A DNA stretch of 64,000 nucleotides from Myxococcales bacterium (GTDB taxonomy: Bacteria > Myxococcota_A > Polyangia > Haliangiales > Haliangiaceae). This document shows positions 6,189 through 64,000 of the stretch, one piece after another (position 1 is the first letter of the stretch; each line of letters begins with the position of its first letter). The notes beneath the pieces were generated by a model. It made no database searches. It saw only the letters and a program-made list of their open reading frames with translations, and had not been told where the DNA came from. Location of the stretch: the NCBI GenBank assembly GCA_016707895.1, contig JADJGV010000034.1:757625-821624 (forward strand), given 5' to 3'. Both the position numbers and the translations under genes were made by a program.

Positions 6189-9851
<3,663 letters not shown>

Positions 9852-9952
9852 CGCCCGTCGGTAGCACGAAGCCCGGGCCGGGCCAACGGGCCGGGCGCCG
9901 GGCCGCGATCGCCGCCGCGTCACATCGGCGGCGGGGCCGGGCACTACCGGGC

Positions 9953-11053
9953 GTGACCACCGCGCTCCACGCCCCCGCTGCGCACCAGCTGCCCGCGTCG
10001 CACGATCAGCAGCCCGACGGCCCCCGCACCGATGACCGCGACGGCGCCGTCGCCGAGCTGCTGGCGTTGATCCAGTCCGACGGCCTGTCCCCCGAGGTCG
10101 CGGCGCTGGTGGCGCGCCGCCACCCGCACCAGCTCGACCGCCTGATCGCGCACCTGCACCAGCACGGCAACGCGTTCGTCGACGAGACGCTGGCGCTGGT
10201 GGCGCGGCCGGCGGGCGACGCGGCGTTGCCGACCCGCGCTGACGACGCCGGCGCGGCACCGGCGCGGCCCGCGAGGCCGGCGCGGGCGCTGCCGGACGTC
10301 GCGACCCAGGCGGCGGCGGTCGGCGCGACGGCGGGCGAGGTCGGCGCGACGGCGGGCGAGGTCGGCGCGACGGCGGGCGAGGTCGGCGCGACGGCGGGCG
10401 GCGAGGTCGAGGCCGCGCTCCAGCCCGAGGTCGAGCCGGACTACGCGGCGTCGCGGGCCTGGAACCGCGCCCACGTGCGCAACGTGGTGCGCTTCGACTA
10501 CGCGACCAAGCACCGCTACGCCGATCAGCGCCGGAACGGCGAGCTCGACGTGTACCGGGTGGCGCAGTGGCAGCGCGAGCACCAGGCGGCCTACCCCGAT
10601 CTCGAGGTGACCGGCATGGTCGACGAGCTGACCTGCGAGATCGCCGAGGGCCGGCCGCCGCAGCCGCGCCCGCCCAAGCCCCACCACCCGCCGTCGGTCG
10701 AGCTGCTGCCGACGATCGCGCTGCCCAACGTCCCCGACGGCACGCTCTACCCCGCGGGCCGTCGTTTCCATGTGCCGTTCGAGGTGCAGGCGCGCCCCGG
10801 CACCCAGATCTGGCTGCAGGGCTACATCCCCAACGGCATCCCCGAGGCGCGGCGGGTGGTCACCACCGACGGCGACGGCCACGCCACCGGCACGCTCGAG
10901 TTCAACGCCCAGGGGATCGGCGCCGACGACCGCCCCGAGGCGGTCTACGCGCTCACGATCATCGGCACCGAGAGCCCCGCCGAGGGCGGCCGCTCGGGGC
11001 CGGTCATCCAGCGGCGGATCCGCATCGTCAGCGCGCCGCCGCCGATCTGGTGA
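9953..11053 (+). CDS. Hypothetical protein with an internal 7-residue tandem repeat (VGATAGE, four copies)
   Basis: This is a 366-aa ORF with high GC3. A 21-bp DNA repeat at about 10310..10395 encodes GEVGATA repeated four times. A C-terminal beta-rich domain is present. No family was recognised. Confidence 0.45.
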
Positions 11054-15943: not shown

Positions 15944-17932
<1,989 letters not shown>

Positions 17933-17996
17933 GCCTGACGGTCGTATAGGCGGTCGGCCAGGTCAACGGGGAGGAACCGGCCGCGCGCACCGTATT

Positions 17997-19577
17997 ATGA
18001 GCGCCATGTCCTCCGATCGCGAGCTCGCCCACCGCCACGACGCCGACCACGATCCGCGCAAGCGCCCGGCCGACCGCGAGGCCGCGGACGCGCCGCCGCC
18101 CGACCTCGCCGGCGTGGTCCAGGCCAAGGCCGACGGCGGCCGGGTCGCGCTGACCGGCGACCAGGACGTCCGGGCCGCCGCCGCCACCGGCGTGCAGTCG
18201 GGCGGCAGCCAGCTGCCGCACCTCGACAAGATCCAGGCGTCGTTCGGCGGCGCCCACGATCTGTCCGGCGTGCGCGCCCACGTCGGCGGCGAGGCGGCCG
18301 CCGCCAGCGCCCAGATGGGGGCCCAGGGCTACGCCACCGGCTCCGACGTCGCGTTCGCCCAGCAGCCCGATCTGTTCCTCGCCGCCCACGAGGCCGCCCA
18401 CGTCGTGCAGCAGCGAGAGGGCGTGCAGATGAAGGGCGGCGTCGGCCAGGCCGGCGACGTCTACGAGCAGCACGCCGACAAGGTCGCCGAGCGCGTCGTC
18501 GCCGGGCAGTCGGCGGCCGATCTGCTGCCGGCGTCGGCCGGCGGCAGCGGCGGCGCGGTGCAGATGTACAACGAGAAGGTCATCAGCGGCGAGGCCTGGC
18601 GGGTCTCGGAGTCGGGCAAGTCGATGCTGAAGGAGGAGGACAAGCTCCAGGATCTGTTCGCGACCAACGATCTGATCGCGACCGCCAACGCCGCGCTCAA
18701 GACCGCCGGCGACAAGGGCTCGTTCATCTCGCTCAAGGCCGGCGCGGCGTCGCTGAAGGTCGGTGAGAACACCCTGCACCGCGTCGAGCCGGTGATGAAC
18801 CCGACCGGCACCGACGCCGCCAACGACATCCTGCGCGAGGCCAACAAGGACGGCGCCGAGGACAGCGCCGGCGAGACCGACGACTCGATGGCGCTGTGGG
18901 CCGACTGCGGCCGGTCGTCGCGCACCATCATGGGCACCGACGGCCAGGGCCAGGCGCCGCACGCGAAGTACAAGGACGGCGGCGGCACCGCCACCACCGG
19001 ACGCTCGTACAACCCGGCCACCTACTCCGACGAGATCTACCTCAAGGAGGTGCCCAAGTTCCTGAAGAGCGCCGAGGCCGCGGCCTACCTGAAGGACGGG
19101 GTGCACTACGACGCCGGCGACAAGACCGCGCTCAAGACGCCGACCACGGCGGACGAGGCGCGCGCGATGTACTGGGAGCTGGGCGAGGACGGCCGCCGTG
19201 CGTTCGACAAGTTCGCGGGCATCAACACCGCGGCCGATCCGGCGATCGGCGGCGCGTACACGATGAACACCGAGTACAAGATGCCGGGCTCCGGCGTGGT
19301 GCCCGGCAAGAAGCGCTGGAACTTCCACTGGGGCGGCGTGATCCTGAAGGACGGCAGCAACAACGTCACGCTCGAGAACTACGCGGTCGGCTTCGCCGCG
19401 ACCGGCGACGCGGCCAAGGACGCGGAGAACCGCAAGCGCGCGTACGACTGGGTCAACCACGACTGGAACTTTCAGATGTACGGTACGGCCAAGAAGGGCC
19501 AGAGCTTCCATGAAGAGCACCTCGACACCGGGACCCACGGCACCCGGGCCAGCACGTTCGCCGCGCAGGTCGACTAG
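17997..19577 (+). CDS. DUF4157 (zincin-like HExxH metallopeptidase) protein with a large C-terminal domain of unknown function; putative toxin or effector
   Basis: The N-terminal region matches the DUF4157 pattern ([19 protein letters not shown] ... [29 protein letters not shown]). The C-terminal roughly 330 aa are K/N/Y/W-rich, are not recognisable, and contain Cys and His candidates (LWADCGRSS). Start candidates are ATG 17997 and ATG 18006, both in frame. GGAGG lies about 20 nt upstream of 17997. Confidence 0.75.
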
Positions 19578-53545: not shown

Positions 53546-54856
53546 TTAGCGGCCACCCGCCTTTGCGGATCCCCGCGTTCTCCTGGCCGGTGGGGCCTGG
53601 GATCGGCGGCGCTTGCGTGCCGCCGGCGGCGTCCTGACTTCGGCGCCCGCCTGAGCCGGAGCCGCCGCGACCTCGCCGCCAGCATGCGGCGGCGCCACCG
53701 CTTGTTCGCCTTCCACGTGGGATGGCGGCGCCCCGTACGGCCGCCCATCGGCGTGCACGAACCGCAGCTTGCCGGGCGCAGTGCCGACGATCTGTAGCCG
53801 ACCATCGTGCGCCGCCTTGTGGTGCGCCGAGCAAAGCGCCGTCAGCTTGGTCGGCGTGTGATCGCCTCCCTCCACCCGCGGCACGATGTGGTGCACGTCG
53901 ACGTACCGCGCGTTGCGGCACCCCGGCACGACGCACCGCCCGCGATCCCGCCGCAGCACGGCGCGCCGGGTCCGCGGCGGGATCGTCTTGGTCACCCGCG
54001 CGGGCTCGTCACCGTCGACCCGCCCGAGGAGCTCGGCGTCGCACGACGCCTGCGCCAGCTCCGTTTCACTGATCTCGATCGTGTGCCCGGCCACGTCCTG
54101 CCAAGCGCGGAGGCAGTCGGGGCACCGCGTGATCGCGATCTGATACATGGGCCTGGACGCCGCCGCGGCATCTCCCGCGTGGGATCCCGCCGCGGCATCT
54201 CCCACGTGGGAGCCCGCGCCGGGCAGCTGGCCATCGCACAAGGTCGCGAGCAGGTCGCCATCGGTGAGCGGGTGCCCGCACGCCGCCTCCAGCGCGCGCC
54301 GCGCCGCGGTGAACTTGCCCCGCACCGCCGCCGGCAGCAGCAGCCGCAGCTCGTGCAGGCGCGCGGCGGGGGCCGGCGGATCCTCCGGCGAGTCGCCCCG
54401 CCGCCGCCCGCTCACCATCTCCTCGATCTCCCGCACGGTGTGCTTGGCCGCCGCCGTCAGCCACGCCGCCTCGGTGTCGACCGTCGCGACCCGGGTCAGC
54501 TCGCGCGCGGCGCTGTACGCGACGTCGCCGGCGGACATCGCCGCCCGCAGCTTCGGCAGGACCGCGAGCGCGTCGGCCACCCGCAGCCGCTCCCGCGCCG
54601 GCCCCGGCGCGTAGCCCAGGATGCGCTCGACGTACTCGAAGAACGTCGCGAAGCCGAACTCGCGATGGACGCCGAGCGCCCGCGCGCGCCGCAGCCACGC
54701 GGCCTCCTCGACGTCGAGCGCCGCCCGCCGCCGCGCCAGCCCGCGCAACGTCCGGTCGACCTCGCGCCAGTCGTCCGCGGCCGCCGCGCCAGCCGCCGCC
54801 GCGGCGGCGGCCGCCGCCTCGCTCACCTTCAGTCCGCCCGCTGCACCGTCCACCAT
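53546..54856 (-). CDS. HNH endonuclease with an N-terminal DUF222 domain (13E12-repeat family)
   Basis: C-terminal HNH motif: CVVPGC ... VDVHHIVPRVEGGDHTPTKLTALCSAHHKAAHDG. The N-terminal DUF222-like helical region is present. The start was chosen at ATG 54856. The upstream part of the longer ORF, which reaches 55078, coincides with low-GC palindromic DNA. Confidence 0.7.
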   Translation of the reverse strand: MVDGAAGGLKVSEAAAAAAAAAGAAAADDWREVDRTLRGLARRRAALDVEEAAWLRRARALGVHREFGFATFFEYVERILGYAPGPARERLRVADALAVLPKLRAAMSAGDVAYSAARELTRVATVDTEAAWLTAAAKHTVREIEEMVSGRRRGDSPEDPPAPAARLHELRLLLPAAVRGKFTAARRALEAACGHPLTDGDLLATLCDGQLPGAGSHVGDAAAGSHAGDAAAASRPMYQIAITRCPDCLRAWQDVAGHTIEISETELAQASCDAELLGRVDGDEPARVTKTIPPRTRRAVLRRDRGRCVVPGCRNARYVDVHHIVPRVEGGDHTPTKLTALCSAHHKAAHDGRLQIVGTAPGKLRFVHADGRPYGAPPSHVEGEQAVAPPHAGGEVAAAPAQAGAEVRTPPAARKRRRSQAPPARRTRGSAKAGGR

Positions 54857-54904
54857 GCCCAGGCCCTCAGCAAGCCGCACGCCAGCCGTAACCCCGCGAC
54901 GCCT

Positions 54905-55010
54905 GGCGCCGCGTGTCCGAATCTCGGACATAATGGCCGGATTCGTCCGGTTTCGTCCGGCGTTCCGGCCATCCCCGGACAGCCGCGGGTGTCCGGCGCC
55001 GGACACCCCG
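54905..55010. promoter_or_regulatory. Palindromic operator-like sites upstream of the HNH gene
   Basis: TGTCCGAATCTCGGACA (54913..54929) and GTGTCCGGCGCCGGACAC (54988..55005) share TGTCCG/CGGACA half-sites. Between them lie direct TTCGTCCGG repeats. Local GC is lower than in the surroundings. Confidence 0.4.
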
Positions 55011-55144
55011 CAGCCCTCGCCGCCCCGATGCGCCCGGCGAAGCAGCCCGGCAGTGACCGGCATTGGGGTTGGCGCCAAGCGTTCGGCGTTGGCTTGGGCG
55101 ACCGCGACGGAGCGCCGAGCCGTGCTGCATCCGGAGCCGGCGGT

Positions 55145-55801
55145 TCAGCGGCGGGCGCGGACGTGGAGCGACTCGAACATCAGGCCGCGGGTGCGGGTCT
55201 GGTCGAGCTCGCGGCGGCGGTCGGGGCCGCCGCCGTCGATCGTCGCGGCGGAGGCGAGCTCGCGGCGGGCGTAGTCGGTCCAGACGCGGGGATCGTCGCG
55301 GCAGTCGTAGCGACGGCAGGTGGCGGGGCGGTGGGCGTAGGCGTCGCAGCCGGTGGCGCCGAGGTGGGCGCAGCGGCCGTCGGGGCCGTGGCGCAGGAGG
55401 TACGGGCGGCCGTGCTCCCAGCGCAGGATCCCCTCGTCGAGGTCCTGGCTGGAGAGCGCCACGTCGAACTCGCAGCAGCGCGCGCCGCAGATCGGCAAGA
55501 GCTCGAGGCACGGCGGACCGTCGTGGGGCGGCTCGGCGTACTTGTCGACGTCGTCGGCGATGACGACGCGGCCGGGCGCGTTGGCGTCGGCGAGCGCGAT
55601 CGCCGGGAGCAGCGCCGCGGCGCGGGCGTCGACGGCGGCCTCGGCGGCGGTGGGATCGGCGGTGGTCGCCGCGACCTGCTCTCCGAGCGCCACCACCCGC
55701 GCCGCCAGCGCGCGCAGATCGCCGCGCAGCTCCTCGAGCGCGAGCAACGTCGCGCGCACCGTCTGCAGCAGCTCGGCGGCGGTCAGCTCGGGCTCGGCCA
55801 T
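55145..55801 (-). CDS. YkgJ/UPF0153-type Cys-cluster protein (putative Zn/Fe-chelating domain)
   Basis: CLELLPICGARCCEF is a CxxCxxCC-like pattern. Further Cys residues follow (CAHLGATGCDAY ... CRRYDC). Confidence 0.5.
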   Translation of the reverse strand: MAEPELTAAELLQTVRATLLALEELRGDLRALAARVVALGEQVAATTADPTAAEAAVDARAAALLPAIALADANAPGRVVIADDVDKYAEPPHDGPPCLELLPICGARCCEFDVALSSQDLDEGILRWEHGRPYLLRHGPDGRCAHLGATGCDAYAHRPATCRRYDCRDDPRVWTDYARRELASAATIDGGGPDRRRELDQTRTRGLMFESLHVRARR

Positions 55802-56863: not shown

Positions 56864-56930
56864 GCGTCTTGGGTGGGGGCCCCGCGGGGGCATGACCCCG
56901 CGGGGGAGGGTTTGGCGACAAACCCTCAGC
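56864..56930. repeat. Intergenic palindromic element, copy B
   Basis: GCGTCTTGGGTGGGGGCCCCGCGGGGGCATGACCCCGCGGGGGAGGGTTTGGCGACAAACCCTCAGC. It has two self-complementary CCCCGCGGGG blocks and an AGGGTTTG-GCGA-CAAACCCT hairpin. It lies in a divergent intergenic region. Confidence 0.65.
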
Positions 56931-56949: not shown

Positions 56950-57726
<777 letters not shown>

Positions 57727-57831: not shown

Positions 57832-58176
57832 GTGGCGTTGCTGTCGGCGTGGGCGGTGCTGGTGACGCTCGAGGCCCCGTGGCTGGCGGCGCTGGCGGTG
57901 GTGATGATCGCCGCGGCGGTGGCGCCGTTCTGGCTGCCGACGCGCTACCGGATCGACGACGGCGGCATCGAGGAGCGGCGCTGGCCGCGGCGCCGGCGGC
58001 GCAGCTGGCCCGAGCTGCGGCGGGTCGAGGTCGGGCCGCGCGCGCTGCTGGTGTCGCCGTTCGCGCGGCCGTCGTGGCTGGATCGCTACCGCGGCATGGT
58101 CGTCATGTTCGACGGCGGCGACCGCGCGGCGATCGTCGCCGCGGTGCGAGCCCGGATCGGCGAGGGCGCGGCGTGA
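57832..58176 (+). CDS. Small membrane-anchored protein
   Basis: An N-terminal TM hairpin is followed by a short soluble domain. The stop overlaps the next start in a GTGA arrangement. The start is uncertain, and the ORF is open from about 57770. Confidence 0.4.
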   Translation: MALLSAWAVLVTLEAPWLAALAVVMIAAAVAPFWLPTRYRIDDGGIEERRWPRRRRRSWPELRRVEVGPRALLVSPFARPSWLDRYRGMVVMFDGGDRAAIVAAVRARIGEGAA

Positions 58177-58457
58177 CCGCGGGCGACGCCGCCGAGGCCG
58201 CGCTGACCGCCGACGACCGGGCGATGCTCGACGAGCTGGCCGACGCGATCGCCGCGCGCCGGCTGACCTCGGCCGCGATCTTCTTCCTCGAGTCGATCCA
58301 GCCGCTGGGCTACCTGGGCAGCCAGCTGATGCTGGGGCTGCGGCCGCTGGTGTCGATCGTCTGGCCGTCGCCGGTGCGCTGGGACCAGGTGCAGCGGGTG
58401 CTCGAGCAGCGCGGCGCGATCGAGGCGCTGCTGCGCCGGCTCGAGGCCCGGGCCTAG
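58173..58457 (+). CDS. Small hypothetical protein (94 aa)
   Basis: It is translationally coupled to the upstream gene and ends 6 bp before the GlmL-like gene. A hydrophobic segment is present (SAAIFFLESIQPLGYLGSQLMLGL). Confidence 0.4.
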   Translation: MTAGDAAEAALTADDRAMLDELADAIAARRLTSAAIFFLESIQPLGYLGSQLMLGLRPLVSIVWPSPVRWDQVQRVLEQRGAIEALLRRLEARA

Positions 58458-58462
58458 GCCCC

Positions 58463-60322
58463 GTGATACAACGGCCGGCGATGTCCGCGCACCCGCACGC
58501 CGCGCCCGCGATCGATCCGGCGGCGATCCGCTCGGTGATCGCGACCGACTGCGGGTCGACCACCACCAAGGCGATCCTGATCGAGCGGAACGCCGCCGGC
58601 GAGTACCGGCTGACCGCGCGCGGCGAGGCGCCGACCACGGTCGAGGCGCCGGTCGAGGACGTCACCCGCGGCGTGCTCAACGCGGTGCGCGAGATCCAGG
58701 AGCTGCGCGGCCGGCAGTTCCTGTCCGACGGCAGCGCCGCCCACCCCCACGGCGCCGACGGGCCGATGATCCTGCGCCCCGAGCAGGACGGCGTCGGCAC
58801 CGACCTCTACATCTCGACCAGCTCGGCCGGCGGCGGCCTGCAGATGATGGTGGCCGGCGTGGTCAAGAACATGACCGCCGAGAGCGCCACCCGGGCCGCG
58901 CTGGGCGCCGGCGCGATCGTCATGGACGCGATCGCGGTCAACGACAGCCGCCTGCCGCACGAGAAGATCGAGCGCATCCGGCAGCTCCGCCCCGACATGA
59001 TCCTGCTGGCGGGCGGCACCGACGGCGGCACCCGCAAGCACGTCGTCGCGCTGGCCGAGCTGTTGCGCGCGGCCCAGCCCCGGCCGCGGCTGGGCGCCGG
59101 CTTCGACCTGCCGGTGATCTACGCCGGCAACCGGATGGTGCGCGGCGACGTGCGAGCCATCCTCGACGGCCGGGTCGCGCTGCAGTTCGTCGACAACCTG
59201 CGGCCGACGCTCGAGACCGAGCACCTCGCGCCGGCCCGCGACGCGATCCACGACGTGTTCATGGACCACGTCATGGCCCAGGCCCCGGGCTACGGCAAGC
59301 TGATGAGCTGGGCCGACGCGCCGATCATGCCGACGCCGGGCGCGATGGGGCTGATCATCCAGGCGCTGGCGGCGCGGGACCAGGTCAACGTCGTCGGCGT
59401 CGACATCGGCGGCGCCACCACCGACGTGTTCAGCGTCTTCGACGGCACCTTCAACCGCACGGTCTCGGCCAACCTCGGCATGTCGTACTCGGTGTCCAAC
59501 GTGCTGGCCGAGGCCGGGCTGGCGTCGATCCAGCGCTGGGTGCCGTTCCCGCTCGATCCCGCCGAGCTGCGCGATCGCATCGGCGGCAAGATGATCCGCC
59601 CGACGACGATCCCCGAGACGCTCGAGGAGCTGAAGATCGAGCAGGCGATCGCCCGCGAGGCGCTGCGGCTGTCGTTCATCCAGCACCGCACGTTCGCGGT
59701 GAAGCTGCACGGCGCGCAACAGGCGCGGTCGATCGCCGACGCCTTCGCGCAGGGCGGCTCGGACTCGCTGGTCGACCTGATGAAGCTCGATCTCCTGGTC
59801 GGCTCGGGCGGCGTGCTCAGCCACGCGCCGCGCCGCGCGCAGTCGATGCTGATGATGATCGACGCGTTCCTGGTCGAGGGCGTCACCGAGATCGCGGTCG
59901 ACTCGATCTTCATGATGCCGCACCTGGGCGTGCTGTCGACGATCCACCCGGCGGCGGCCACCGAGGTGTTCGAGAAGGACTGCCTGGTCCGCCTGGGCAC
60001 CTGCGTCGCCACCGTCGGCGCGCCCAAGCACGGCCCGGCGCTGACCGTCGAGCTGCGCCTGCCGGGCGGCAGCACCCAGAAGCTCGAGCTGGCCGCCGGC
60101 GCGCTCGAGCTGGTGCGGCTGGCCGACGGCGAGTACGCCGAGGCCACGCTGACCCCGGCCCGGGGCGTCGACGTCGGCGCCGGCCCCGGCGAGCGGCTCG
60201 AGCGCCGGCTGCGCGGCGGCCAGGTCGGGCTGGTGTTCGACGCCCGCGGCCGCCGGCCGCTCGACGTCGTCGGCGATCACGCGGCCGAATGGGCCCAGGC
60301 CATGGCCTTGTACCCGAGCTGA
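58463..60322 (+). CDS. GlmL/MutL-family (glutamate-mutase-L-like) actin-fold (ASKHA) ATPase
   Basis: The N-terminal phosphate-1 motif is ATDCGSTTTKAIL, and a second nucleotide-binding motif is GVDIGGATTDVF. The 619-aa length is typical of the GlmL family. Confidence 0.75.
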   Translation: MIQRPAMSAHPHAAPAIDPAAIRSVIATDCGSTTTKAILIERNAAGEYRLTARGEAPTTVEAPVEDVTRGVLNAVREIQELRGRQFLSDGSAAHPHGADGPMILRPEQDGVGTDLYISTSSAGGGLQMMVAGVVKNMTAESATRAALGAGAIVMDAIAVNDSRLPHEKIERIRQLRPDMILLAGGTDGGTRKHVVALAELLRAAQPRPRLGAGFDLPVIYAGNRMVRGDVRAILDGRVALQFVDNLRPTLETEHLAPARDAIHDVFMDHVMAQAPGYGKLMSWADAPIMPTPGAMGLIIQALAARDQVNVVGVDIGGATTDVFSVFDGTFNRTVSANLGMSYSVSNVLAEAGLASIQRWVPFPLDPAELRDRIGGKMIRPTTIPETLEELKIEQAIAREALRLSFIQHRTFAVKLHGAQQARSIADAFAQGGSDSLVDLMKLDLLVGSGGVLSHAPRRAQSMLMMIDAFLVEGVTEIAVDSIFMMPHLGVLSTIHPAAATEVFEKDCLVRLGTCVATVGAPKHGPALTVELRLPGGSTQKLELAAGALELVRLADGEYAEATLTPARGVDVGAGPGERLERRLRGGQVGLVFDARGRRPLDVVGDHAAEWAQAMALYPS

Positions 60323-60343
60323 TTCGCTATCTTCCTCCGACCC

Positions 60344-61465
60344 ATGGGCGACGCCTACACCCCCGGCCTGACCGTCACGCGGCGCACCCGCGTGCGCAAG
60401 CCGCGGCGGCTGCCGATGCCGGGGAAGGTGCTGCGCAAGGTCGGTGATCGCGTCACGTCGCAGGACGTCGTCGCCCGCACCGAGCTGCCGGGCAAGGTCC
60501 ACCTGCTCAACCTGGCCAACGCGCTGGGCGCGCTGCCCGACGAGCTGGCCGCCAAGCTGCTGGTGCAGCCGGGCGGCGCGGTGACCAAGGGCGCGCCGCT
60601 GGCCCGGAGCGCCAGCTTCTTCGGCCTGTTCAAGCACACCGTCGCGTCGCCGATCACCGGCACGCTCGAGTCGGTGTCGGCGGTGACCGGCCAGGCGGTG
60701 CTGCGCGAGCCGCCGGTGCCGGTCGAGGTGCGGGCCTACGTCGACGGCGAGGTGGTCGAGCTCCTCGGCGACGAGGGCGTCGTCGTCGAGACCGAGGCGG
60801 CGTTGATCCAGGGCATCTTCGGCCTGGCCGGCGAGGTCCACGCGCCGATCGCGATGGTCGCCACGAGCTGCGACCAGCCGCTGACCGCGGCCGACGTCAC
60901 CGCCGCGCACCAGGGCAAGGTGATCGTCGGCGGGGCCCGGGTGTCGCTCGCGGCGATGCGGAAGGCGATGGACCTCGGCGTCGCGGCGATCGTCAGCGGT
61001 GGCTTCGCCTACCAGGACGTGCGCGAGCTGCTCGGCTACGACGTCGGCGTCGCGGTCACCGGCACCGAGGACCTGCCGACGACCTTGGTCGTGACCGAGG
61101 GTTTCGGCGACATCGCGATGGCCAAGGCGACGTTCGCGCTGTTGCAGTCGTTCGACGGCCGGCCCGCGTCGGTGTGCGGCGCCACCCAGATCCGCGCCGG
61201 CGTGATCCGCCCCGAGGTGGTCATCCCGGTCGGCGCCGACGCCGCCGCGGCCGACGAGGTCGCGCCGCCGGCCGGGCTGGCGGTGGGCGCGCCGGTGCGC
61301 TGCATCCGCGCGCCGTACTTCGGCAAGCTGGGGACGATCAGCGCGCTGCCGACCGCGCTGCACACGCTGCCGTCGGAGACCAAGGTGCGGGTGGTCGAGG
61401 TGGCGCTGGCCGGCGGCGAGGTGGTCACGGTGCCGCGCGCCAACGTCGAGGTGATCGAGCGATGA
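60344..61465 (+). CDS. Hypothetical protein with an N-terminal barrel-sandwich hybrid (lipoyl-like) domain; operon partner of the GlmL-like ATPase
   Basis: PMPGKVLRKVGDRVTSQDVVARTE and SPITGTLESVSAVTGQAV fit the two halves of a barrel-sandwich hybrid motif. The remaining roughly 230 aa were not recognised. The stop overlaps the next start in an ATGA arrangement. Confidence 0.55.
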   Translation: MGDAYTPGLTVTRRTRVRKPRRLPMPGKVLRKVGDRVTSQDVVARTELPGKVHLLNLANALGALPDELAAKLLVQPGGAVTKGAPLARSASFFGLFKHTVASPITGTLESVSAVTGQAVLREPPVPVEVRAYVDGEVVELLGDEGVVVETEAALIQGIFGLAGEVHAPIAMVATSCDQPLTAADVTAAHQGKVIVGGARVSLAAMRKAMDLGVAAIVSGGFAYQDVRELLGYDVGVAVTGTEDLPTTLVVTEGFGDIAMAKATFALLQSFDGRPASVCGATQIRAGVIRPEVVIPVGADAAAADEVAPPAGLAVGAPVRCIRAPYFGKLGTISALPTALHTLPSETKVRVVEVALAGGEVVTVPRANVEVIER

Positions 61466-62904
61466 GGGCGCTGATCGTCGGGCCGCTCGTCGCGCTCGCG
61501 CTCGGGCTCGCCACCGCCGCGGCGGCGCAGCCGAGCCTGACGCCGTTCCCCGACGAGCCGCCGCCGGCGCACGCCGGGCCGCGGCCGGCGCCGACCGATC
61601 CGAACCAGCCGACCCCGCCGGGCCCGCCGGCCCCGCCGCCGCTGACGCCGATCGAGCCGCCGCCGCCGGTGCGGCCGCCGCCGGTCGAGGCGGTGGTGCC
61701 GGGCGTGACCGACCTCGAGGTCGTGGCGCCGGACAACGACGACGGCCGCCACCTGCGCGTGACCTTCAGGCGCGCGCCCGACGTCGCCGACGACGTCGTC
61801 ACCGCGGTGTTCCGCCGGCCCCACGGCGCGGTCGGCGCGCCGCCGGTGTACCCGACGCTCCTGGCGCCAGCCGCCGGGACCGCGCCGCGCACCTGGGATC
61901 CCACCTTCGCCGGCGCGCCCGATGTCGCGGTCGGCGCGCCGGCCACCGGCGACGCGGTCGGCCCGTGGACGCTGACCGCGCTGCTCGAGGGCGGCGAGGA
62001 CGTCGTCGTCGACGAGGTGCCCCCGGGCGGCACCTACGAGTACGTCGTGGCCGAGCTGCGCCGCGGCCCCGGCAAGGCGGTCGTGGCCAGCTCGGTCGGC
62101 GCGGCGATCGGCCCGCGCACGCCCGCGGCCGCGGTGTTCAACACCGACCGGGTCGGCTACCTCGGCATCGTGCTCTTGATCGCCGGGCTGATCGGCTACT
62201 ACGTGCGCGCGGCCAAGGGCCGCAAGCAGGACCTGTACGTGCGGCGGCTGCCCGGCGTCGACGCGATCGAGGACTCGATCGGCCGCTCGACCGAGATGGG
62301 CCGGCCGGTGCTCTACGTGACCGGCCTCGAGGACATCCAGAACATCCAGACCATCGCGTCGCTGCTCATCCTCGGCCACGTCGCCGAAAAGACCGCGCAG
62401 TACGACACCGACCTCACCGTCGCCAACTACTACCCGCTGACGATGGTGGTGGCCGAGGAGGTCGTGCGCCAGGGCTACGCCAACGCGGGCCGGGTCGACG
62501 CCCACCGCCCCGAGCGCTGCCTGTTCATCACCGCCGAGCAGTTCGCGTTCGCCGCCGGCGTCAGCGGCATCATCCTGCGCGACCGGCCGGCCACCAACAT
62601 CTACTTCGGCACGTTCTACGGCGAGTCGCTGCTCCTGGCCGAGACCGGCTTCCTCACCGGCGCGGTGCAGATCGCCGGCACCGCCGAGCTGACCCAGCTG
62701 CCGTTCTTCATCACCGCCTGCGACTACACGCTGATCGGCGAGGAGCTGTACGCGGCGTCGGCGTACCTGACCAAGGAGCCCACCTTGCTCGCCAACCTCA
62801 AGGCGGCCGACGCGTTCAAGATCCTGGCGATGCTGTTCATCGTCGTCGGCGTGACGCTGGCGACGATGGGCGTGTTCGACCTGGGCCCGGCGGTGTTCAA
62901 GTGA
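61462..62904 (+). CDS. Membrane protein with a Pro-rich periplasmic N-terminal region and a large conserved C-terminal domain
   Basis: Signal peptide MRALIVGPLVALALGLATAAAA. A Pro-rich segment precedes a TM helix (VGYLGIVLLIAGLIGYYV), a conserved soluble domain, and a terminal TM helix. The stop overlaps the next start in a GTGA arrangement. Confidence 0.55.
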   Translation: MRALIVGPLVALALGLATAAAAQPSLTPFPDEPPPAHAGPRPAPTDPNQPTPPGPPAPPPLTPIEPPPPVRPPPVEAVVPGVTDLEVVAPDNDDGRHLRVTFRRAPDVADDVVTAVFRRPHGAVGAPPVYPTLLAPAAGTAPRTWDPTFAGAPDVAVGAPATGDAVGPWTLTALLEGGEDVVVDEVPPGGTYEYVVAELRRGPGKAVVASSVGAAIGPRTPAAAVFNTDRVGYLGIVLLIAGLIGYYVRAAKGRKQDLYVRRLPGVDAIEDSIGRSTEMGRPVLYVTGLEDIQNIQTIASLLILGHVAEKTAQYDTDLTVANYYPLTMVVAEEVVRQGYANAGRVDAHRPERCLFITAEQFAFAAGVSGIILRDRPATNIYFGTFYGESLLLAETGFLTGAVQIAGTAELTQLPFFITACDYTLIGEELYAASAYLTKEPTLLANLKAADAFKILAMLFIVVGVTLATMGVFDLGPAVFK

Positions 62905-63821
62905 AGAAGACCGTGCCGCTGGTGATCGGGATGATCTTCGGCGCGTTCGCGCTGGCCGAGTTCTACATCCCGCACCACCAAGTGGGCGCGCTGTCCAACG
63001 AGTTCCGCTCGTGGGCCGCGATCCTGTCGGCGGCGGCGTTCATCATCGGCGGCGTCAACATCCTGCAGGTGACGTGGCCCAAGATCCGCCGGCGCGAGCC
63101 GGACTGGGGCTACAAGGTGGTGCTGCTGGGGGCGGCGGCGGTGATGCTGGTGGTCGGCCTGCCGTGGCACAAGCTGGGCGATCCGCCGAGCCGTCCCACC
63201 GTGACGTTCGGGCCGAGCCTGCCGCCGTCGGCGCCCGGCGAGCGACCGCCCGCGGCCGTCGTGTTCGTGCAGGTGCCGGCCGACGTGACCTATCAGGTCG
63301 GCGCCACCGTCGGCGTCGGCACCGGCGATCCGGAGCCGGTCAGGGTCGCGGCCGGCGAGGTGACGATCAAGCTGTCGCGGCGGGTCGCCGGCTACCGCCC
63401 GCTCGAGACCAAGGTGACCGTGGCGGCCGGCGACACCGTCAACGTCGAGGGCGACCCGCCGATGCTGTGGGGGCGCGACGGCCGGGTGTTCGTGTGGATC
63501 TACGACCACGTCTTCGGCCCGGCCAACGCCACCTTGTTCGCGCTCTTGGCCTTCTTCGTCGCCTCGGCGGCGTTCCGCGCGTTCCGGGCCCGCAACGCCG
63601 AGGCCGCGCTGCTGCTGGGCGCGGCGATCTTCATGATGCTGGGCCGCGCGCCGCTGGGCCGCGCCATCTCCGACGTGCTGCCCGATCTGGCGCAGTGGCT
63701 GCTCGACGTGCCGTCCAACGGCGGCCGCCGCGCGATCATGATGGGGGCGGCGATCGGCGCCATCGCCACCGGCCTGCGGGTCATCCTCGGGCTCGAGCGC
63801 TCGCACCTGGGGAACGACTGA
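62901..63821 (+). CDS. Polytopic membrane protein
   Basis: Multiple TM helices with a central soluble region. The stop abuts the next ATG in a TGATG arrangement. Confidence 0.55.
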   Translation: MKKTVPLVIGMIFGAFALAEFYIPHHQVGALSNEFRSWAAILSAAAFIIGGVNILQVTWPKIRRREPDWGYKVVLLGAAAVMLVVGLPWHKLGDPPSRPTVTFGPSLPPSAPGERPPAAVVFVQVPADVTYQVGATVGVGTGDPEPVRVAAGEVTIKLSRRVAGYRPLETKVTVAAGDTVNVEGDPPMLWGRDGRVFVWIYDHVFGPANATLFALLAFFVASAAFRAFRARNAEAALLLGAAIFMMLGRAPLGRAISDVLPDLAQWLLDVPSNGGRRAIMMGAAIGAIATGLRVILGLERSHLGND

Positions 63822-64000
63822 TGGCCGCCGCCCGCGAACACTGGAGCGAGCGCCTGCAGCGCTTCGACCGCCGCTGGATCTTCCTGGTGATGGCGGTGGC
63901 GGTGGTGGTGCCGCTGTTCTGGCCGCTGGGGCTGCCGGCCAAGCCCGACGCGATGACCAAGGCCGCGTACAACGCGGTCGAGGCGCTGCCGACCTGCGAG
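63822..64000 (+). CDS. Membrane protein, 5' fragment that continues beyond the window
   Basis: MAAAREHWSERLQRFDRRWIFLVMAVAVVVPLFWPLGLP includes a TM helix. The ATG immediately follows the upstream stop. Confidence 0.45.

Follow-up and report, generated by a model that had tools for sequence, protein, structure and literature searches.

The DNA analysed here is a stretch of 64,000 nucleotides (nt) of contig JADJGV010000034.1 from a Myxococcales bacterium (assembly GCA_016707895.1), referred to below as the window, and the region in question is its last part, positions 57832–64000, where seven co-directional genes on the + strand, g1–g7, were found from the open reading frames (ORFs) and a reading of their junctions. 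The third of these genes, g3, encodes an actin-fold ATPase of the MutL/GlmL family, and an earlier note on this DNA had claimed that this GlmL-like gene belongs, with no B12 mutase gene beside it, to an operon for an uncharacterised membrane-associated machine. The core of that claim is supported by a gene order kept across phyla, by gene fusions and by the lack of known-family matches, and the genes are considered, with high confidence, to specify a conserved, mutase-independent, membrane-associated system. The G+C content of this part of the window is 72–78%. The genes are arranged as follows (lengths in amino acids, aa; L001 is a near-identical public contig on which the operon was followed beyond the window):

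57832–58176, + strand: g1, 114 aa, the first gene of the map
58173–58457, + strand: g2, 94 aa, its start overlapping the g1 stop as GTGA
58463–60322, + strand: g3, 619 aa, after a 5-nt spacer from g2
60344–61465, + strand: g4, 373 aa, after a 21-nt spacer from g3
61462–62904, + strand: g5, 480 aa, with an ATGA overlap with g4
62901–63821, + strand: g6, 306 aa, with a GTGA overlap with g5
63821–64000, + strand: g7, with a TGATG start, its first 60 codons lying in the window before it runs off the edge
L001 10921–11871: the full g7, 316 aa
L001 11868–12872: g8, 334 aa, beyond the window, with a 4-nt overlap with g7
L001 12888–14285: g9, 465 aa, beyond the window, after a 15-nt spacer from g8

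These genes make up about the first two thirds of a nine-gene operon, g1–g9, and the database names of the closest homologues place the genome in Kofleriaceae (Myxococcota). The remainder of the operon past position 64000, which the earlier note had proposed to sequence, was read from public contigs that encode the exact g6 protein; one of them, 373 kb long and from assembly GCA_964269055.1, matches the tail of the window at 99.87% identity, and two shorter ones match it at 100%. The membrane gene that had been described as running off the window is g7, which is complete in the near-identical contig, where g8 and g9 follow it. The two small coupled genes that had been placed before the GlmL-like gene were likewise seen as g1 and g2, coupled by their GTGA overlap and separated from g3 by the 5-nt spacer. 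As to the start-stop overlaps said to follow the GlmL-like gene, those of the ATGA, GTGA and TGATG types are present from g4 onwards, whereas the g3–g4 junction is a spacer of 21 nt.

Comparison of g3 with Pfam gave a match to MutL (PF13941) with an E-value of 2.4e-125 that covers profile positions 1–450 of 450, along with secondary matches to Hydantoinase_A (7.6e-7), Hydant_A_N and BcrAD_BadFG. The curated NCBIfam scores, however, were not reached: g3 obtained 226 bits against GlmL (NF040745; cut-off 475), 216 bits against Or-4 (NF040744; cut-off 600) and 169.7 bits against glmL_fam (TIGR01319; cut-off 204). The three ASKHA motifs, i.e. phosphate-1 (DCGSTTTK, residues 29–36), phosphate-2 (DIGGATTD, 314–321) and adenosine (GSGGV, 447–451), were located in alignment A3, and D29, G31, T33, T35, K36, D314, G316, G317, T319, T320, D321, G449, G450, D593 and R595 are invariant in the g3 homologues. 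The last two belong to the invariant DxRGRP that ends a conserved C-terminal extension of 110 aa; homology of this extension to g4 was rejected by hhalign. As judged from sequence, g3 was thereby shown to be a divergent long-form MutL/GlmL-family ASKHA ATPase with all its nucleotide-binding motifs intact, that is, an active-looking actin-fold ATPase. No match of g3 to the MreB, FtsA, ParM and PilM families, or to MamK as an actin-like group, was obtained in Pfam and NCBIfam.

Some other long-form MutL-like representatives (P0252, P0259 and P0287) carry degenerate phosphate-1 and phosphate-2 motifs, e.g. DCGTSMTT, DVGEVITE and DLDDSLTK, and may be catalytically dead paralogues. Unusual fusions at the N-terminus of the MutL-like ATPase were also observed, namely a Peptidase_M1 domain in P0250 (1332 aa, from a metagenome-assembled genome, MAG, of Bacillota), a GntR helix-turn-helix (HTH) domain in P0296 (703 aa) and, in P0244 (1304 aa), ~690 residues that include a TSP3 repeat; these fusions may be real or gene-calling artefacts.

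Canonical operons of the order glmS-glmL-glmE-methylaspartase were found by a protein search of plasmid records in Peptoclostridium and Ensifer (L093 and L094), and their GlmL proteins, which are without the extension, are 27–30% identical to g3 and 461–467 aa long; it is because of the conserved C-terminal extension that g3 reaches 619 aa. GlmS, GlmE and methylaspartase from these two operons served as tblastn queries against the window and 92 related loci, 1.56 Mb altogether. GlmE and methylaspartase gave no match in this set, so that the absence of a B12 mutase claimed earlier holds for the window in this search, and GlmS gave one weak match, to the B12-binding domain of MetH. The corresponding gene, at 6192–10859 on the − strand and ~50 kb upstream of the operon, encodes a full-length cobalamin-dependent methionine synthase and contains the sole B12-binding domain found in the window. 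The scan of ten other large window genes revealed no mutase, nor was any found among the recurrent neighbour families of the related loci, the Ora and Kam subunits not being among the tblastn queries. The possibility raised in the earlier note that orthologues of the operon adjoin aminomutases elsewhere was thus followed up in the 92 loci, in none of which such a neighbour was seen. Compared with GlmL proper, g3 shares the Pfam domain and differs in curated score, in mutase context and in size.

The product of g4 has no signal peptide, transmembrane (TM) segment or any hydrophobic segment. In its AlphaFold2 model (pLDDT confidence score of 85) an N-terminal barrel-sandwich hybrid is followed by a central α/β domain and a C-terminal SH3/KOW-like barrel, and the fold search returned domain-level matches only, to KOW/SH3 and to the N-termini of BCCP/NqrA/RnfC. 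A biotinyl/lipoyl match in Pfam spans only profile positions 43–70, and the sole invariant lysine in 45 g4 homologues, K19, lies outside the hairpin region; a biotinyl/lipoyl carrier was rejected for want of a conserved modifiable lysine at the hairpin tip. An HlyD-type periplasmic adaptor was rejected as well, because g4 is cytoplasmic and is fused to the ATPase in other lineages; moreover, it has no HlyD-family match in Pfam and no long coiled coil in the model. Of the lipoyl/HlyD-like barrel protein described earlier, the N-terminal barrel-sandwich hybrid is therefore retained, whereas the HlyD adaptor is not, g4 being cytoplasmic and C-terminal to the ATPase in the fusions. No Hydantoinase_B or other catalytic signature was found in g4. 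The two small proteins encoded upstream of the ATPase are an accessory part of the system, g1, which is a small membrane protein with an N-terminal hydrophobic hairpin and a basic soluble tail as seen from hydropathy, and g2, which carries the conserved hydrophobic motif PAIxFLESxKPLxFLGSQ (alignment A7) and is proposed to be a membrane anchor or adaptor for the ATPase.

In assembly GCA_964269055.1, 13 clustered substitutions and a 1-bp insertion were observed near the 3' end of g4 (window 61414–61433; about 8513–8533 of L001). With these changes g4 reads through into g5 as a single ORF of 853 aa, and this g4–g5 fusion of the 99.87%-identical strain could be either real or an assembly error.

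The membrane module consists of four core proteins, g5 to g8, with about 16 TM helices together. The first of them, g5, is the signal-peptide membrane protein with a Pro-rich region of the earlier note, both features having been described correctly; beyond the signal peptide and the Pro-rich linker it comprises a periplasmic FN3 domain, a TM helix and a cytoplasmic α/β domain (FN3 outside, α/β inside), and it ends in a helical region of very high conservation, in which acidic residues are buried, followed by a C-terminal TM helix. Residues 223–471 match DUF6754 (PF20539) with an E-value of 1.4e-102 and 342.6 bits (cut-off 27). The conserved motifs of g5 hold invariant E, D and C residues, and E388, E394, D421, E427 and E428 are invariant in 50 sequences. 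The fold search with g5 was dominated by FN3 matches and uninformative on DUF6754. The polytopic membrane protein noted earlier is g6, with six hydrophobic segments (6 TM) and a core of about 210 aa (alignment A8), whose residues from about 95 to 195 form a PEGA-like insertion present in Kofleriaceae only. In g7, N- and C-terminal TM helices enclose a domain of about 230 aa (alignment A5) that is predicted to be periplasmic because of the positive-inside rule. The last protein of the module, g8, has six or seven hydrophobic segments and a conserved cytoplasmic loop, FLYKDNPFYKxAEH; a faint T2SSK/HHH match lies in a loop insertion specific to Kofleriaceae. Outside this family g6 and g8 are about 210 aa each, and the loop insertions of both are periplasmic.

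The domain matches in the insertions of g6 and g8 were not taken as functional links: a connection to the S-layer through the PEGA match of g6 and one to the type II secretion system through the T2SSK match of g8 were both rejected, since these are lineage-specific insertions. Homology between g5 and g7, and the idea of g6 and g8 as an inverted-topology pair like NqrD/E, were rejected by hhalign. Above the curated cut-offs, no Pfam family was matched by g1, g2, g4, g6, g7 or g8, and g5 matches only a domain of unknown function (DUF); g1, g2, g6, g7 and g8 had no significant NCBIfam match, and 24 orthologues of g7 compared with Pfam at E-values up to 1 gave no consistent family. Sequence and profile searches of the PDB with g3–g8 returned no meaningful match, and no solved relative was detected for any component. 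The earlier note had also considered that the downstream proteins might belong to a well-characterised transporter family; for g5–g8 no such family was found in Pfam, NCBIfam or the PDB profile search. Only g9 matches a known transporter family, being a LolCE/LolF-like permease with MacB_PCD and FtsX domains (PDB LolF, 2e-54; TIGR02212, 4e-89 and 299 bits, below the cut-off of 362), and it is adjacent to the cluster in Kofleriaceae only. No gene for an ABC ATPase was found in the operon.

Relatives of g3, g4 and g5 number at least 8,000 each at 90% clustering, virtually all scored candidates lying within the E-value limit, and the MutL family comprises 2894 representatives at 50% clustering, many of them about 600 aa long and sharing the extension. 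When a 20-sequence g3 alignment was run against one genome per species, at least 600 matches were obtained, and the best 80 loci of these, whose proteins are 59–83% identical to g3, were analysed by translating all ORFs and searching them with g1–g9. These loci belong to Myxococcota, Latescibacterota, Eisenbacteria, Zixibacteria, Nitrospirota, Planctomycetota (Brocadia, Scalindua), Ignavibacteria, Calditrichaeota, Marinimicrobia, Fidelibacterota, WOR-3, Lentisphaeria and others. It is clear that dozens of loci, from more than a dozen bacterial phyla, keep the order (g1)-g2-g3-g4-g5-g6-g7-g8, and the seven-gene arrangement is more than chance because this order is met with so widely; the neighbourhood conservation beyond Myxococcota that the earlier note had asked about is thereby established. 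Among the 59 loci with enough flanking DNA, g4 adjoins g3 in 51 (86%), the full g4–g8 set is present in 37, g2 in 47 and g1, upstream of g2-g3, in 26 (about 44%), while g9 is found in four, all of them Kofleriaceae. In Marinimicrobia-type loci g2 is placed after g4. A reciprocal check starting from DUF6754 proteins showed that those loci also have MutL and g4. The conserved core is a seven-component system of many diderm phyla, and strong purifying selection is indicated by identities between phyla of 59–66% for g3 and 41–52% for the g5 core.

Fusions and duplications link the components of this core to one another. Many representatives of 900–1050 aa are fusions of g3 and g4 with g4 at the C-terminus of the ATPase, as in Candidatus Ozemobacteraceae and Candidatus Zophobacter, and in one case (P0271) g2 is fused to the N-terminus of a g3 homologue. 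The ATPase g3 and the cytoplasmic three-domain protein g4 are thus shown to be an evolutionarily obligate pair, fused in several lineages. In several lineages the g5–g8 block is found two or three times in tandem next to one g3–g4 pair; these duplications are old, because the paralogues are only 29–56% identical, with divergence greatest in g7 and smallest in the g5 core. This shows g5–g8 to be four co-inherited inner-membrane proteins, a module that has been multiplied while the ATPase has not.

Unmatched neighbour ORFs of the related loci were clustered, and the recurrent clusters were scanned against Pfam. In Eisenbacteria-type loci gcvT-gcvH-gcvP lie directly upstream of g1-g2-g3 on the same strand (L021, L025, L031–L033, L043 and L074), and the neighbours in Latescibacterota are genes for peptide ABC transporters and a TonB-dependent receptor. 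Those in Marinimicrobia-type loci encode CdsA, a YegS-type lipid kinase and an RlpA-like protein, and in Zixibacteria/Ignavibacteria-type loci tolQ-tolR-tolA-tolB-pal-ybgF come directly after g4 on the same strand. A weak hint at an envelope substrate, e.g. a lipid or lipoprotein, comes from the Tol-Pal, LolCE, CdsA, lipid-kinase and RlpA neighbours seen in different phyla. An extra gene of 250 aa, here called gene X, was observed between g3 and g4 in L047, L051, L053, L087, L089, L091 and L092, its product having a signal peptide, a periplasmic domain and a C-terminal TM helix; in Zixibacteria/Ignavibacteria-type loci with gene X, three g5–g8 modules are located divergently upstream.

Around the operon itself, a gene for an enoyl-CoA hydratase (ECH) occupies positions 56950–57726, 105 nt upstream of g1. 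Further upstream lie genes on the − strand for a protein with an HNH-endonuclease domain (53546–55078) and for one with a CxxCxxCC zinc/iron-chelating domain (55145–55801), and on the 3' side of g9 there follow a convergent gene, a 1332-aa Ser/Thr kinase with an AAA_16 domain, then a YcaO–TfuA pair (L001 14135–20921). A GC-rich element of 64 bp with two hairpins (GGGGGCCCCGCGGGGGCATGACCCCGCGGGGGAGGGTTTGGCGACAAACCCT) was observed upstream of the ECH gene at window positions 56864–56927, and an inverted copy, 90.6% identical, lies just past the g9 stop at L001 14290–14353, so that a block of 10.4 kb from ECH to g9 is bracketed by the pair. The rest of the 64-kb window and 93 other loci yielded no further copy, and the element may serve in regulation or as a terminator, or it may be a mobility remnant. 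Elsewhere in the window, a gene for an AAA ATPase with a winged-helix domain (15947–17962, − strand) stands beside one for a protein with an extracellular contractile injection system (eCIS) core domain (17109–19574, + strand).

With regard to function, the genes may tentatively be read as an ATP-driven inner-membrane transporter or translocator with an actin-fold ATPase, a reading that is plausible while falling somewhat short of likely. The pair g3–g4 would dock on the cytoplasmic face via g2, the α/β domain of g5 and the cytoplasmic loops of g5–g8 (e.g. the FLYKDNPFYKxAEH loop of g8); binding and hydrolysis of ATP by g3 would cause conformational changes in g5–g8, and by these a substrate would be carried across the inner membrane or out of it; periplasmic domains are contributed by g5 and g7. 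For the binding of an ion or substrate, the invariant carboxylates that g5 has in its hydrophobic helices would be well suited, and the paralogous g5–g8 modules would be alternative clients served by the same motor, much as ABC and ECF transporters may have an ATPase in common. It is this pattern of one motor with several modules, together with the g5 carboxylates, for which the reading of ATP-driven transport is favoured. A bolder version, which must be regarded as doubtful, is that of an unrecognised class of primary energy-coupled machine in which an ASKHA ATPase replaces the ABC, P-, F/V- or AAA+ motor. It would be a matter of conjecture in the same version that g4 completes a motor driving one to three interchangeable four-subunit modules, made of DUF6754 and three unnamed families, and no firmer that the machine might have a housekeeping role in envelope or transport in many diderm phyla that lack a model organism (among them Nitrospirota, anammox Planctomycetota, FCB-group candidate phyla and Kofleriaceae). 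The system was rated as lying outside every known kind, its mechanism being inferred from anatomy and synteny only.

Several points weigh against ATP-driven transport. None of the components resembles a known transporter, channel or pump in sequence, profile or fold, and to our knowledge no primary transporter is powered by an ASKHA ATPase; the sole role that we know to have been proposed for the GlmL family is a chaperone or reactivase-like one. The coupling of g3–g4 to g5–g8 is proposed from synteny only, and in about a quarter of the loci g3–g4 occur with no g5–g8 within 10 kb. The sets of neighbours are heterogeneous, ranging over glycine cleavage, peptide ABC transporters and envelope genes. 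Furthermore, the AlphaFold2 model of g5 has pLDDT values of 50–60 exactly in the most conserved helical region, and the placement of the acidic residues in the membrane is unproven because this region is modelled at low confidence.

Other explanations have to be weighed beside the transporter. That g3 is a displaced accessory of a B12 mutase, i.e. a GlmL or Or-4 reactivase of the usual kind, with its mutase gene at another site and with neighbours unrelated to it, would agree with the Pfam MutL match and with the 'glutamate mutase L' annotation of its relatives in databases; this explanation is effectively refuted, since g3 stays below all NCBIfam cut-offs of the GlmL family, is 150 aa longer than canonical GlmL at 27–30% identity, is accompanied by no GlmE or methylaspartase match in the loci searched, and is bound by tight synteny and by fusions to g4 and g2 across phyla. 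A chaperone or reactivase for a membrane enzyme, in which g3–g4, much like GlmL in its proposed role and like the reactivases DdrA and EutA of B12 dehydratases, would spend ATP to assemble, cofactor-load or repair an enzyme complex formed by g5–g8 with no transport involved, is unlikely though worth consideration: the characterised neighbours of the MutL/GlmL Pfam family are enzyme accessory proteins, the invariant E, D and C residues of g5 could form an active site, and one ATPase pair for several paralogous modules fits a shared maintenance factor. Accessory chaperones, however, rarely exceed their clients in conservation, yet g3 is the most conserved component here; g5–g8 show no cofactor-binding or enzyme family signature, and the reactivase role of GlmL is itself no more than presumed.

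A rather less probable alternative is a membrane-tethered, ATP-dependent enzyme coupled to uptake, in which g3–g4 would act in the manner of a hydantoinase, oxoprolinase or kinase on a small molecule delivered by g5–g8, perhaps derived from an amino acid or peptide. The secondary matches of g3 to Hydantoinase_A (7.6e-7) and Hydant_A_N, the GcvT/H/P, Opp-type ABC transporter and SBP_bac_5 neighbours in some phyla, the one relative fused to a Peptidase_M1 domain and the ECH gene just upstream in the window are consistent with such vectorial metabolism; but these neighbours are clade-specific and not universal, g4 has none of the catalytic signatures, Hydantoinase_B included, and the Peptidase_M1 fusion is a single MAG protein that could be a gene-calling artefact. 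An actin-like cytoskeleton or scaffold, with g3 forming polymers at the membrane in the manner of MreB, FtsA and MamK and organising g5–g8 and envelope machines such as Tol-Pal, is improbable. It would account for the actin fold of g3 (Pfam clan of MutL), for a cross-phylum conservation of ~60% comparable to that generally known for MreB, for g2 as a putative small membrane-binding partner and for the Tol-Pal genes that adjoin in several lineages, whereas g3 has no match to MreB, FtsA, ParM or PilM, its nearest families being the enzymes and activators Hydantoinase_A and BcrAD_BadFG, and the fusion to a g4 of 370 aa, or singly to a GntR HTH or Peptidase_M1 domain, would be unusual for a filament former. 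Anti-phage defence or mobile-element cargo, as might be thought of from the 64-bp inverted repeat bracketing the ECH-to-g9 block and from the HNH-domain gene a few kb upstream, is very improbable in view of the very high cross-phylum conservation and the housekeeping-like neighbourhoods; PADLOC found no family for any of the nine proteins, and the sole plasmid matches are canonical GlmL genes with less than 33% identity.

Comparison of the proposed transporter or translocator with known systems gave partial likenesses only. With GlmL/MutL and Or-4 (NF040745, NF040744, TIGR01319; PF13941) g3 has the Pfam family, the ASKHA fold and the three nucleotide motifs in common, but in the loci examined it never adjoins glmS or glmE, being instead paired with or fused to g4, usually followed by g5–g8. 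The type VII ABC mechanotransmission systems (MacB, LolCDE/LolF, FtsEX) offer a functional analogy only, in that an ATPase of the cytoplasm works there with a membrane module and with periplasmic domains on envelope substrates, and in Kofleriaceae a LolCE/LolF-like protein, g9, is encoded in the same operon; in contrast to them, the ATPase here is of the actin fold, g5–g8 have no MacB_PCD or FtsX domain, and g9, which is part of the cluster in Kofleriaceae only, lacks a LolD-type ATPase beside it. PilM–PilN/O, FtsA–FtsN and GspL are actin-fold proteins docking on bitopic membrane proteins of envelope machines. The operon resembles these systems in encoding a cytoplasmic ASKHA-fold protein together with small and bitopic membrane proteins, although PilM, FtsA and GspL have no sequence relation to g3 and no pilus or secretin genes are present here. 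The subunit pattern recalls that of Rnf/Na+-NQR, where NqrA/RnfC with its N-terminal barrel-sandwich hybrid is joined by several small polytopic subunits and a bitopic periplasmic one, and the N-terminus of g4 resembles NqrA/RnfC_N, yet g5–g8 have no Rnf-Nqr, NQR2_RnfD_RnfE or FMN_bind match and no Fe-S/flavin motifs, the system has an ATPase and not a redox module, and no homology between g6 and g8 was detected. The reactivases of B12 enzymes, DdrA/GdrA and EutA, are actin-fold ATPases that remodel a partner protein complex; unlike them, g3, which has no sequence match to these reactivases, would have as its candidate client a membrane complex with no B12 signature. No family of membrane subunits is shared with the type VII ABC systems, the PilM/FtsA systems or Rnf/NQR. 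A literature search on DUF6754, PF13941, TIGR01319 and GlmL-like proteins yielded no relevant paper, the first three being mentioned by none in the library searched, and the FcmB protein of a 2025 paper on a 'fifth bacterial actin family' is a ParM relative, unrelated to g3.

The label 'glutamate mutase L' misassigns thousands of genes to B12-dependent glutamate fermentation. The system that many of them may represent, as g3 does, is widespread, strongly conserved and uncharacterised, and is probably a new kind of membrane machine, a question that the fusions and the conserved synteny make directly testable. If the inferred mechanism is true, it would be a new type of motor coupling ATP to membrane work, and it would give a function to conserved unknown genes in groups of environmental importance, such as nitrifiers, anammox bacteria and sediment candidate phyla.

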